Shown here: piece by piece, positions 2,389-7,937 of the stretch
Layout of the letters: each line of letters starts with the position of its first letter
How positions within the stretch are numbered: the first letter of the stretch is position 1
Source of the DNA: Mytilus edulis
Lineage: Eukaryota
DNA length: 64,000 nt
Reading direction: 5' to 3'
Assembly (NCBI RefSeq): GCF_963676685.1
Contig: NC_092349.1
Span: 61,380,001-61,444,000 of the forward strand
Made by a program: the position numbers and the translations under genes
The notes under the pieces: model-generated
Database searches by the model: none
The model's input: only the letters and a program-made list of their open reading frames with translations
Told to the model about the DNA's origin: nothing

Positions 2389-4635
2389 TATATAATATGA
2401 TTTAAGCTCTGTATAACCAAGTGTTTTTCGTTGTGTAATGTCATTAGGTTTTCTCATGTTTAGACGTGTATGATAAAATTACAATTTGATGTAATGGCAT
2501 GGTTATTAACACTATCATACTTAACGACCGAACAAATAAAAGATCTGAAGGAAAACCATCTACTTGCCACTATACATCATGAACTGTGTTACAACCCAAG
2601 ATAAAGCCGACAAAAAGACATTACGTCGACCCCGTAAGCTATATTGTTATATAGTCTATGTGGTCGAGTGCTCTAGGGCGCTGGAATTGACACGCTGTAG
2701 GCGATGTTGATACGGTGTCACAGAAGCAATGGTTCAATTTCCGAAAATTACTTTATGTACAAATTAAACCTGAGTAGCTTGAAATTTGTCTGGCCTTGTT
2801 CATGTTGTTGCAACTATAAATGTAAAAAGTTAAACGGTGTTAATCGCAAATTTACCGAAATATATGAAATAAAAGTCCGATATCAGCACTAAAGGATAAT
2901 CTATTTTGAAATGCCCTTGTAGATATTTGAATATCAAACTTCCCATTTTCGGCATTCATTGATGATTTTTATTATTCTCCTTGTTGAAAAGTTGACCACT
3001 GTGTTCATAACTACGATATTGTCCGCCTTCTCGTCTATGTCAGATTGATTGTCTTAAAACTATACTTTAGCCTGACGAATTATTGTTTTGTTCAATCAAA
3101 AAACTAATTATACTGATTCTAACTAAAATAGAATAACTGCCCTACACAAAAAAATCCTTTACGACTTGTTCAATTCAGCATTTGATATAATACCGATAGT
3201 ACCATTTTAAGAACATAACTTATATGTATGACTTTTTAACACAACGTGAACGCCCAAACAACTATTAATGACACATAAACTGTTTAGACTCTACAGTTTA
3301 CATTTTTCAACTCCGAGTTATTGCCTTGATAATTATTATTAGATATGATTCAAAACTCATTTTTGTACGTATATTTATCTATATAAAACCCTCCATAATA
3401 ATTCGTACTCCCCATTATAACAAATAACTGATATGCAATTTATTTGTCCAGATTCTTCAAATCGAAAATACTTTACTTGTTTTTACTTTTCCTGCTTCGC
3501 TTTCTAAAGGTTGTACAAATACATTTTATATTTTCCGACAATGTTTATGTAACTTAATTTAGGTTACAGGCTTGACAATGTTTTATTCTATTTTTTTTGT
3601 CAAGTGTTAATAGTCTTTCCCTTATTGGGGACAAGTATAAATACTCTGTCCCTCATTAAAGCAATCAAAAAGCAAAATAAATGACATCCGAGGAAAGGTC
3701 AGAACGGAAAGTCCCTAATCAATGCAAAATCACAAACAATGATAAGTGCCGAGGTTCATTCAGCAGAAATGCACTGTCGTGTTTTGTAAACAAACATGTG
3801 CAGGTTTTGTTGAATTTTGATGAAACGTTTCCAAGGAGCTGCATATATATATATTAATTTATTCATTTATATGAATGTGCATATCTTTAATCCCGTCTTC
3901 TATAAAAAAAAAATTAAAAAAAATAAAAATTAGAGGGTCATAAATTTTTATATCATTTTATATATCAATTTCTAATGTAACGGTTTGTAAACTTAATGCT
4001 AAGTCATTAATAAACTATTGGTATTGTATTGTATTGTTTTGGTAGAAATCCAAAGTTTTTCAAACAATACAAAGTTTTGTGACCAGTATTTAGATAAACA
4101 TGAAAACATTACCATATTCAACGATATGTTTGTCAAAACAGAAGCACTAATTATAACTGCAACATATAAGAAATAATGTTTAAGGAGTCATTTTAGTCAT
4201 TCTTTGACATGTCTGCATAAGTAGGTACATATACTTTTGTGACACAAAGTTTGAATTTTTACCCATAAGTAATTGTAAGGATTCTTTGATTTCCTTTTCA
4301 AGCCTTTCTGATATTTTTGGTTTGTCAAAAAAGCTAGTACCTTTGATAACTATTTACACCACTGGGTCGATGCCACTGCTGGTGGACGTTTCGTCCCCGA
4401 GGGTATCACCAGCCCAGTAGTCAACACTTCGGTGTTGACATGAATATCAATAATGTGGTCATTTTTTTTTGATAAATTTCATGTTAACAAAAGTTTAAAT
4501 TTTTCGAAAAACTAAGGATTTTCTTATTCCAGGCATAGATTTCCTTAGCCGTATTTGGCACAACTTTTTGGAATTTTGAATCCTCAGTGCTCTTCAACTT
4601 TGTAATTGTTTGGCTTTATAAATATTTTGATATGA

Positions 4636-4679
4636 GCGTCACTGACGAGTCTTATGTAGACGAAACGCGCGTCTGGCGT
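4636..4679 (+). ncRNA. Type I hammerhead ribozyme with minimal stem III and palindromic GCGC loop
   Basis: gcgtca-CTGACGA-gtct(tatgt)agac-GAAA-c(gcgc)GTC-tggcgt. Conserved CUGANGA/GAAA core, 4-bp stem II, 6-bp stem I with G-U pairs; predicted cleavage after GUC at 4673. Confidence 0.9.
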
Positions 4680-4995
4680 ACTAAATTATAATCCTGGTAC
4701 CTTTGATAACTATTTACACCACTGGGTCGATGCCACTGCTGGTGGACGTTTCGTCCCCGAGGGTATCACCAGCCCAGTAGTCAACACTTCGGTGTTGACA
4801 TGAATATCAATAATGGGGTCATTTTTTTTTTATAAATTTCATGCTAACAAAAGTTTAAATTTTTCGAAAAACTAAGGATTTTCTTATTCCAGGCATAGAT
4901 TTCCTTAGCCGTATTTGGCACAACTTTTTGGAATTTTGAATCCTCAATGCTCTTCAACTTTGTAATTGTTTGGCTTTATACATATTTTGATATGA

Positions 4996-5039
4996 GCGTC
5001 ACTGACGAGTCTTATTTATACGAAACGCGCGTCTGGCGT
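4996..5039 (+). ncRNA. Type I hammerhead ribozyme, second unit, stem II weakened
   Basis: Same core as 4636-4679, but stem II is gtct/atac (one mismatch). Predicted cleavage after 5033. Confidence 0.75.
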
Positions 5040-7937
5040 ACTAAATTATAATCCTGGTACCTTTGATAACTAATTACCATTCGTAACTCGAAAACGTTTC
5101 AATCCCATATCTTCTATATGCATACATGTATGTTGGATAAATCAAGAAGTATTTAATATAAAGAAATTTTAGTCGTGAAACACATACAGTTTTCATTTTT
5201 ACCGATAACGCCTACGAAATATTGATCTGAAAGGAAACTAGGTCATTTACAGGTATTTAGAAGGGAAGTGTTCATTAATGTCAACTGTTTAGTTTTTTCT
5301 TAACTTAACAGGAAAGGTAAGCCATGTACTTTTTTCCTTATCAAAGAACTTAGAAAGTGCAAATACCATAATAAATGTCTTGTTTGGATTTATCTTTAAT
5401 GAAACGGAATAAATAACAATTTTACAGACTTGGATGTCTACATACAAACATTATTTTTACAAAGATTTCTTAATCGCAAACGAGAAAATTTAGAACAAAA
5501 TGTGTGTTAGGAATTACGGATTAATAAATAATTTCTGTTATTTGTTGTTCTACTGCGGTATTATTCATTCAATCGCTGAAACAAAAAATATCGTTTTCCT
5601 ATGTTTACTACACACCTTCCTACAGTTTGTCATATTTTTTAGGTAAATATTCCCGTAGCCGTATTAGGCCTAATTAACGGACAATATTTGATTGTGTTGC
5701 CTTACAGTTTCCTTTTGCCATCCATTATAAAGCCTGTTATCTTTATCTGCGTTTTCAACTTGGTACTTCTAAGAAAATTATAGATCACTGATTTTAGGTC
5801 GTCCTCAAAATTGAATTTGAAATTGAAGATAAAAATCGGTCTTGTTCTTTAATGAAGTGTGCGAATTTCGAGAGTATGTGATTCATGTGTAAAACTTTTC
5901 ATGTTAATATAGAAAATTATATATTTTATAATAATGTAATTGAATGTGTTGCGAGAAAAGGAGTCCGGTCTTTTTTTTCTTCATTTTTTTATCTGAAAGC
6001 TTATTATTAGAGTTATCTTCTTGTATTTACTCTTTTATAATTTATTACTTAGTTTTTTTTTTATCACACACAATTGGGCTTTCCTAGCATTACCTATACA
6101 AATCTGACATTTTTTTCAAAACTTATAGCGTGGAAGCTGCTTGATGACCCATGCTTTTTATGATATTTTGGTCAAGCATGACATAAACTACATTTTGACG
6201 ACAAATCATTAAAAAGTTCTATGGATTTTTATTTAGACCATTCATCATCTTAAACTAATTAAATCCTATTCTTTGCGTTGTGATATTCAAATTATTTGCA
6301 CTCGGATTTGACCTCTCATGGTTACTTCTATTTCATAGGTAACTATGTTTACTAAAAACAGAGATTTCAATTTAGGTCGAATACTTTAAGGGGTATTGAT
6401 CTTAAAAATAATAAGTATATTTATCATGACTACCATAAATTTCAACCTTTTTGTTTGCCTTTAATTTCGAAAAAACAAGATAACCTATAAGGTTAACAAC
6501 TATAGATTACCGTATGTCTTTCAATGATGATAAAATTCTATATCGTGTATCTCGCCATAAAAGGCCTTGAAATGACAGATGAACGATTTAAATAACAACC
6601 AGAATTATGTTTAAAAAAATCAATGGAAATCAAATATGGCAAACAGCAACGAACGAAAACCATGACTTTGGAGATGCACATACAGCAATTGAAGGTGTTA
6701 ATAAAATAAAGATGTGGTTTGATTTGAAAAGAAACAAAACTTCTCCACAAGAGACTTGATGACACGACACGGGTATTCACACACATTGGTTTCTTTTCAC
6801 TTCAATCAACTAATATCAAAACGGTTGATTTAAAGTCACCTTATTCAATTGCAGACGTACACCGAATTTGTCCACCTTTGAATTTGTTGGTTTACTGACT
6901 TTAGTTTTAAAATGGTTTGTAATTAAGAGGTGGGGACAAAGACATTTTCCGCAGCTACTATATGGAGAATCGGACTCACATACATTGCAATCAACTTTAT
7001 TTTTTGACTTATCACGTTCACATATCCATGAAAAAGATAGGGTAGATAAGCTTTCAATTTTTATTTCAAAGAATATTGTTTGATGAGTACATAATACAGC
7101 TGTCGTTTTATATGGTCGAAATATAATTTAACAAGTGATCATGATGTTATCTGCTTCAATCGTTCAATATATATTAACTTTATATATGTCAAAGACGTCG
7201 TGCATATACTCTTAGAAATGGAAATAACACTTAAAAAGTTCCATGCGTCTGATGCGCACTCCTGAATTTACCTTCATCAATATCGCCAATGACTAAGTAT
7301 GTGAAAGCCAATAAATATAGGAAGATGTGATATGAGTGCCAATGAGACAACTCCATATCTAAGTCACAATTTATAAAAGTAAACCATTATAGGTTAAGAT
7401 TTGGTCTTTAACTCGGAACCTTGGCTCACACCGAACAGCATGCTATAAAGGACTTAAAATAATTACACGTGTAAAACCATTCAAACGGGAACGTATCAGA
7501 CCCGAAACAGTTGAAAAGTTATCTGATTCAAAAGGATCTAAAAAATGCAAATCTTTGTATGATTATTTGGTGGCTGGCAGCTTCTAGATTTTAATAAATT
7601 ATAGAAAGGTAAGAAAAAAGAATGAAGCTTTTATTTCAATTCTCAGATTTACATTATTCAACTAGATAAATGAATTTATTTTTTTTGCTTGACGTGTATA
7701 AATCAAAAGTGATGTAATGCAAATGTTAATATGACTGCAGTACTATTTAGACAAATCCGATGTCATGTCACCATATTTTCCCTAATTATGGTCAATATCA
7801 CTACAAACTGCTCAGAGTCTGAATTGACCAGTTTTTGTGCTCGTCCAGTAAAATCGAGCACACATTTTACTCGACTAGTCTCGACATTGTCTCGACTGTA
7901 CTTAACTGTACTTAAGTGTACTCGACTAGGTCTCGAT

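Follow-up and report, generated by a model that had tools for sequence, protein, structure and literature searches.

The closest described system to the element analyzed here is the retrozyme of the mussel Mytilus galloprovincialis. The accessible text of Cervera and de la Pena (2020, PMC7229834) reports ~5000 type I hammerhead ribozymes in that species, in two families with repeats of 350-390 bp; a cloned repeat self-cleaves at ~0.1 per min, an RtcB-type ligase joins the mussel RNA in vitro, and circular RNA is seen by northern blot, with circles dominating the family RNA in mussel tissues. We analyzed a 64,000-nucleotide (nt) stretch of the Mytilus edulis genome (contig NC_092349.1, positions 61,380,001 to 61,444,000 of the forward strand; hereafter the window), in which positions 4337-5072 hold a tandem hammerhead repeat of this already described kind. 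We judge it likely that the locus is a dispersed copy, two units long, of an abundant hammerhead repeat, itself most likely the mussel retrozyme; that this copy was written across an intact ribozyme junction by a reverse transcriptase of Naiads, a clade of Penelope-like elements, starting just before a hairpin common to both elements; and that the copy is a poor source of RNA circles.

The enzyme that mobilizes animal retrozymes and its recognition target have been left open in the literature; a review from the same group (PMC7761336) states in its accessible text that the repeats show no conserved motif indicating a partner. The available portions of PMC7229834 name Penelope-like elements only as candidates and contain no description of a fixed 3′ end or a common hairpin. 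Two other systems frame the comparison. Poseidon_Ac, as far as the accessible text of Frangieh et al. (2024, PMC11167929) describes it, resembles the mussel family as modeled here in having a fixed internal start of reverse transcription near a stem-loop downstream of a hammerhead, AT-rich targets, and a genomic “tail” that internal initiation yields and that marks the start sites. It differs in being autonomous, in belonging to another clade, and in using a linear template, and its likeness to the hairpin discussed below is by description only. Vertebrate retrozymes have been argued to be Penelope-like derivatives, with the Xenopus link drawn through terminal-repeat similarity (Li, Clavereau and Pollet 2026, bioRxiv 10.64898/2026.07.22.740005); the accessible text of that preprint covers no molluscs, presents no initiation signal, and places a Naiad only in a coral genome. 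A search of the literature outside subscription journals and the supplements of key papers found no publication tying mussel retrozymes to Naiads via the hairpin.

The repeat at 4337-5072 belongs to a very large family. Its exact 32-nt hammerhead core matches the 1.37-Gb genome 8,291 times, against 0 matches for a reversed control, so the motif is not a product of chance. A genome search with the repeat unit, whose matches lie mostly on 14 large contigs, returned 4,081 candidates, and among the 40 of these that were scored the arrays range from single units to ~25-mers, their full units are 88-98% identical, and an identical 40-nt hammerhead is kept in 83 of 123 units. At least four related retrozyme families with differing hammerheads occur among 30 loci taken by hairpin motif in genome order. 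The original prediction had assigned the repeat to the retrozymes that lack long terminal repeats (non-LTR) and had named Mytilus among the precedents, and the assignment agrees with the features described in the accessible text of PMC7229834. The units are tandem, non-coding, low in GC, and within the ~150-450 bp range of metazoan non-LTR retrozymes, they carry a type I hammerhead, and the family is dispersed, high in copy number, and marked by retrotransposition. In both mussels the tandem units measure 350-390 bp, are low in GC, lack an open reading frame (ORF), and carry a type I hammerhead whose helix III has 2 bp; there are thousands of copies, which fall into more than one family of related repeats, and RNA is present. 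The differences are two families there against at least four here, and the damaged second hammerhead of this copy. Size, topology, and abundance, rather than alignment to clones MN642551-MN642576, make the published mussel retrozyme the most likely identity of the repeat.

The ends of the arrays carry the first part of our argument. Across the 40 scored arrays, the window locus among them, 36 end +37 to +44 past the last cleavage site, and the 5′ ends are scattered over unit positions 1-335. When the 30 motif-selected loci were read by eye, 10 of 11 distinct arrays with a downstream hammerhead (one of the 11 is also within the 40 scored) stopped just before the position of a hairpin. The cleavage site of a second family lies 7 nt farther from this hairpin and its arrays still end just before it, so the array end tracks the hairpin and not the cleavage site. 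By analogy with Poseidon as described in the accessible text of PMC11167929, fixed 3′ ends with scattered 5′ ends are the pattern that target-primed reverse transcription would leave if it always began at one site within the RNA. Divergence between units is 0.7% within arrays versus 2.9% between them, and in one dispersed array of 21 units (L031), 5′ truncated and with the standard 3′ end, 19 of the 20 full units are identical. The two units in the window have three variants in common relative to the family majority, one of them absent from the 39 other loci; of the 8 positions at which they differ from each other, one lies at the 5′ edge. The simplest reading is a single template copied about twice, with local duplication also possible. 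An array of ~14 units elsewhere (L036, G000:C7:65764100-65772000) contains a repeated three-unit block in which units 7-9 equal units 10-12 at the variant columns, hinting at duplication at the DNA level or at a trimeric template.

The hairpin before which the arrays stop is also found in Naiads. The genome contains 11,052 instances of its core motif, against one for the control. We recovered three Naiad families (A, B, and C), whose proteins are ~50% identical over the N-terminal region that was compared; all three have the CxC motif and DKA, which together with an N-terminal GIY-YIG domain and YIDD are the marks of the clade in the accessible text of Craig et al. (2021, PMC8557442). Pfam places GIY-YIG at residues 179-269 of 1053 and at 138-226 of 1007, the latter below the curated cut-off, and RVT_1 at 645-854 of 1000, likewise below the curated cut-off; YIDD lies at 844-898. 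Family C is young, with many copies 100% identical over the 200 amino acids searched and open frames of 1000 amino acids. The hairpin motif sits at the ORF start in 19 of 21 full-length Naiad loci, and in 17 of 19 loci the downstream terminal copy ends near the hairpin, at 4-9 nt before the stem in 15 of those 17. In four retrozyme families and three Naiad families, then, the fixed end lies at one common distance from the same hairpin. Among 50 loci fetched through GIY-YIG matches the motif was present only in one Naiad copy (L068 = L090). Local alignment of Naiad C with the retrozyme unit scores 88, against a shuffle maximum of 31. To judge from the accessible text of PMC8557442, whose main text contains no occurrence of “stem-loop” or “hairpin”, the Naiad clade and the retrozyme have in common the ORF-start hairpin, the 3′-end offset, 5′ truncation, and partial tandems. 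They differ in that Naiads encode the N-terminal GIY-YIG and a reverse transcriptase without a canonical hammerhead, whereas the retrozyme is non-coding and has one. Of 20 Naiad loci, 19 have no match to a simple pattern for the canonical hammerhead core in their 3′ regions; the one match, in the remaining locus, lies beyond the element end.

The paired positions of the hairpin covary. In an alignment of 10 sequences, from which Naiad A was excluded for a 21-nt insertion, 98.2% of cells are paired, against at most 53.5% in slid controls. Both sides have changed in 7 of 22 pairs, a count that 11 of 500 shuffles reach, and the covariation score of 0.310, versus 0.145, is reached by 0 of 500 shuffles.

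Two side observations concern the Naiads themselves. All 10 copies of Naiad family B (L144-L151, L157, and L158) carry a decayed piece of retrozyme in the 3′ untranslated region (UTR), for example L145:5296-5520, spanning unit positions 146/155 to 329/356 at 70-73% identity, with the remnant of a dead hammerhead next to it in L145. The piece looks fixed in the family and may be an old insertion, a capture, or a trace of retrozyme origin. The window itself contains, at 13110-13747 on the minus strand, a young 3′ piece of Naiad family A that is 96% identical.

The features of the locus are as follows.

4337..5072, plus strand: retrozyme insertion of 2.04 units, 5′-truncated, with the family-typical fixed 3′ end (5′ edge 4334-4337; 3′ edge 5072 when only exact matches count, or 5077 with a substitution at 5073)
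4337..4673, plus strand: unit 1, starting at unit position +24 and ending at cleavage site 1
4361..4418, plus strand: Naiad-type bulged hairpin, copy 1, predicted start signal for reverse transcriptase (core motif 4376-4402)
4636..4679, plus strand: type I hammerhead 1, intact, with helix I of 6 bp, helix II of 4 bp, and helix III of 2 bp plus a GCGC loop (Rfam RF00163, 34.9 bits; predicted cleavage after C4673)
4674..5033, plus strand: unit 2, the 360-nt monomer predicted from sequence between the cleavage sites
4721..4778, plus strand: Naiad-type bulged hairpin, copy 2 (52 of 61 nt the same as the ORF-start hairpin of Naiad family C)
4780..4799, also 4420-4439, plus strand: 8-bp UUCG hairpin, present in retrozyme families and absent from the aligned Naiads
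4996..5039, plus strand: type I hammerhead 2, with an intact core and a helix II that a private G>T at 5019 weakens; a private G>T at 5016 falls in the loop (cleavage predicted after C5033; under the Rfam cut-off)
5034..5072, plus strand: 39-nt 3′ extension past cleavage site 2, stopping 9 nt short of the expected start of the next hairpin

Paired changes preserve the stem of the UUCG hairpin at 4780-4799 in another retrozyme family.

Much of what the original prediction had claimed for the locus stands. Tandem Repeats Finder bears out a repeat of period 360 at 4337-5077, with 2.1 copies and 97% matches, and the CUGACGA...GAAA...GUC cores at 4642-4673 and 5002-5033 are spaced exactly 360 nt apart, which places the cleavage sites after 4673 and 5033 as had been proposed. 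Helix III of hammerhead 1 is indeed a 2-bp stem (A4665-U4672 and C4666-G4671) closing a GCGC loop, and this loop sits within the palindrome ACGCGCGU, for which a self-duplex of −13.3 kcal/mol is predicted. With helix I as GCGUCA/UGGCGU, helix II as GUCU/AGAC, a CUGANGA and GAAA core, and an NUH triplet, hammerhead 1 is of type I. The suggested search with Rfam Hammerhead_1 recovered this first core only, at 4636-4679 (E 5.3e-05, above the gathering score of 34), which is the one match to any Rfam family at gathering level within the 64-kb window; hammerhead 2 keeps its catalytic core and scores under the cut-off. The two cores are not equivalent, a point that the original prediction missed. 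G>T changes in core 2 lie in loop II at 5016 and at 5019, where a C-G pair of helix II is lost, and neither T5016 nor T5019 occurs in any of 39 other aligned loci. Predicted energies are −5.7 for core 1 versus +0.7 kcal/mol for core 2 over the catalytic fold, and −1.9 versus +4.5 kcal/mol over helix II. Because helix II of hammerhead 2 is broken, the locus, probably an ordinary, half-decayed, two-unit retrozyme copy, is on its sequence probably a poor source of RNA circles.

One label is not supported. The original prediction called these hammerheads minimal and able to cleave as dimers, whereas in the accessible text of PMC7229834 a tetraloop on a 2-bp helix III is the usual form among invertebrates and “minimal” denotes the Penelope-type hammerhead variants, from which the present motif departs by the extra C-G pair of its helix III (GAAA-C-GCGC-G-UC). 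Since most such motifs are described as cleaving as monomers (PMC7761336, in its accessible text), the dimer label is unneeded; dimerization through the palindrome is possible and not required. The ends of the DNA copy lie off the cleavage sites (4337 at +24 and 5072 at +39), its units run head to tail only, without an LTR layout as judged from unit order alone, GC is 0.32 over 4001-6000, and no reading frame of 110 or more amino acids overlaps 4337-5077. The free fold of each 61-nt hammerhead segment lacks the hammerhead structure (z 0.42 and 0.21), and the minimum-energy fold of the circular monomer forms the Naiad-type hairpin and no hammerhead, neither of which bears on activity; a sigma-70 promoter scan, which is not relevant to animal DNA, found nothing.

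RNA reads speak to the family and not to this copy. In four raw-read runs chosen by species label, 3,458, 3,762, 5,223, and 1,845 reads were placed on the family, which is therefore expressed in every run. First mates are mostly from the minus strand in three runs (612 versus 113 in X21 and 929 versus 106 in X23 at 4551-4591), which indicates RNA of the hammerhead strand, given common stranded libraries; the fourth run shows no strand bias. Depth in 40-nt bins is even across the cleavage site, reads are continuous over the junction, and no pile-up of read ends occurs at 4673/4674 in the four runs, a level profile that fits circles and uncleaved multimers alike. Reads leave the retrozyme at 4713-4716 and leave Naiad C at 1447-1450 of L153, in both cases 8 to 5 nt before the hairpin stem. 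The flanks of the locus (4100-4304 and 5125-5300) have depth 0 in all four runs, and at 4646, where the locus carries C, the family T is read in 1563/1598, 1631/1679, 2549/2583, and 670/716 reads (94-99%). The family is expressed, but no read evidence points to the locus 4337-5072. Read-through of this locus to yield a 360-nt circle, the central proposal of the original prediction, is accordingly unsupported, helix II of hammerhead 2 being broken as well; the lack of locus reads is an absence of support and not a disproof, since the sequenced animals may lack the insertion.

The mechanism that we propose begins with intact family copies, which would be transcribed and cut by their hammerheads and whose RNA would be ligated, steps taken from the accessible account of the mussel family in PMC7229834. 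The Naiad protein would bind the hairpin and nick AT-rich DNA, and complementary DNA would start 5-9 nt upstream of the hairpin and run back over the cleavage site. The template would need an intact junction, because a start at +40 on a cleaved linear monomer gives only ~40 nt; a ligated circle is favored for this role, and an uncleaved multimer could also serve. Rolling round a circle would produce the 5′-truncated arrays with a tail of 39-44 nt that are observed. At the window locus about two rounds would have been copied, after which the units would have diverged by 7-8 substitutions, two of which fall in hammerhead 2. We lean, with some reserve, toward the general form of this proposal: that retrozymes are ribozyme-closed RNA circles parasitizing hammerhead-free Naiads, with the 58-nt bulged hairpin as a cis-acting signal for a start 5-9 nt upstream and with rolling as the source of tandem arrays.

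Three other accounts must be set against this one. It is rather unlikely, though compatible with the Naiad link, that the template is an uncleaved linear multimer, that long arrays grow by DNA duplication, and that circles are by-products. In the accessible text of PMC11167929, mutating the hammerhead left Poseidon insertion in vitro unaffected, and the substrate was mainly unprocessed RNA; the missing pile-up at 4673/4674 fits uncleaved RNA too, and the three-unit block of L036 is what duplication could produce. Yet the 21-unit array L031 is simplest as many rounds on one circle, the identical 40-nt hammerhead persists in 83 of 123 units, and circles dominate the family RNA in mussel tissues. 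Improbable, in our judgment, is the account in which transcription runs through the locus itself, both of its hammerheads cleave, whether as monomers or as a dimer joined through the palindrome, and ligation closes 4674-5033 into a circle. Each hammerhead has its core, helix I, and GUC triplet intact, hammerhead 2 keeps two core-adjacent base pairs, the palindrome self-duplex would let RNA from other copies act in trans as a rescue, and an axolotl motif with a helix II mismatch still cleaved in part (PMC7229834, accessible text). Against these points stand the helix II energy of hammerhead 2, whose weak core would have to cut one site in a cis dimer, the silent flanks and family T at 4646, and the report, in the accessible text of bioRxiv 10.64898/2026.07.22.740005, that one of nine predicted Xenopus dimers cleaved in vitro.

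Improbable too is mobilization of the family by a long interspersed nuclear element (LINE) or by a Penelope-like element of the canonical kind that bears a hammerhead, with the hairpin as a relic of ancestry or with a role in transcription or RNA stability. The sampled GIY-YIG elements include ~6 canonical families with a C-terminal endonuclease, two of which have minimal cores by a simple pattern, with the short form GAAA-GCGC-UA; Rfam found no hammerhead in 7 canonical loci. The genome does contain young canonical elements with open frames, minimal hammerheads lie close to the 3′ ends of some of them, an element at a Penelope-like ORF start could be a promoter, and Xenopus retrozymes resemble terminal repeats of local Penelope-like elements (bioRxiv 10.64898/2026.07.22.740005, accessible text). 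As partners of the retrozyme, however, canonical elements were rejected: all four tested align with the unit at 22-24, at shuffle level (maximum 31), and most sampled canonical copies end in (TA)n, unlike the 40 retrozyme ends, which are mostly without it. The offset of the insertion end from the hairpin is equal in retrozymes and Naiads, and the hairpin pairs covary, which a DNA promoter would not need.

Several points weigh against the Naiad reading that we prefer. The whole-element score of Naiad A is only 36 against the shuffle maximum of 31; the covariation comes from 10 related sequences, and kinship inflates such counts; and inheritance from an ancestor, or a promoter function, could account for the hairpin. 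The canonical sample comprised the top 150 of 858 GIY-YIG candidates, and another partner may lie outside it. Four of the 40 arrays end elsewhere (+85, +187, +357, and +360), the L036 block makes it likely that DNA-level growth contributes to some arrays, and the locus has no clear target-site duplication beyond a CTA overlap. Short reads on a tandem repeat do not separate circle from multimer, Naiad C reads are about equal on both strands, so that its own transcription is not shown, and unprocessed RNA is the main template in the Poseidon study as accessible (PMC11167929). Naiad binding, initiation, and retrozyme cleavage are all predicted steps.

The window holds further elements. A second-family retrozyme with a 350-nt unit lies at 44411-44921 on the minus strand, with hammerheads at 44826-44795 and 44476-44445 and the variant core CUGAAGA...GAAA-UGCGC-AUC; it ends at the fixed point of its family against a Naiad C-like 3′ piece at 44411-44174, and a further Naiad C-like piece occupies 45210-45002. 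We rejected a template switch at 44411 and regard the contact as chance: the Naiad piece is older (86% versus 95% identity), and 1 of 40 arrays adjoins a Naiad end. Short pieces of truncated retrozymes, from the same family or related ones, occur at 28810-29044, 39202-39308, 49704-49914, 50632-50739, 54626-54740, and 56023-56224. Long open frames with Lipase_3 matches (E ~1e-34) at 27360-28377, apparently split across two frames, 40589-41662, and 58740-59810, on the plus strand, are likely a tandem lipase gene cluster. Broken frames at 16121-19302 on the minus strand resemble, by eye, a DIRS-type retroelement; the two frames tested gave no Pfam match.

If the Naiad reading is true, a helper and a signal are named for an animal retrozyme, and the initiation element of Naiads is defined. 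Family B, with its decayed retrozyme in the 3′ UTR, would then be a record of exchange between Naiads and retrozymes. A short covarying hairpin at a common offset opens the question of the mobilizing enzyme to direct biochemistry and points to a portable signal at which a telomerase-related reverse transcriptase would start.

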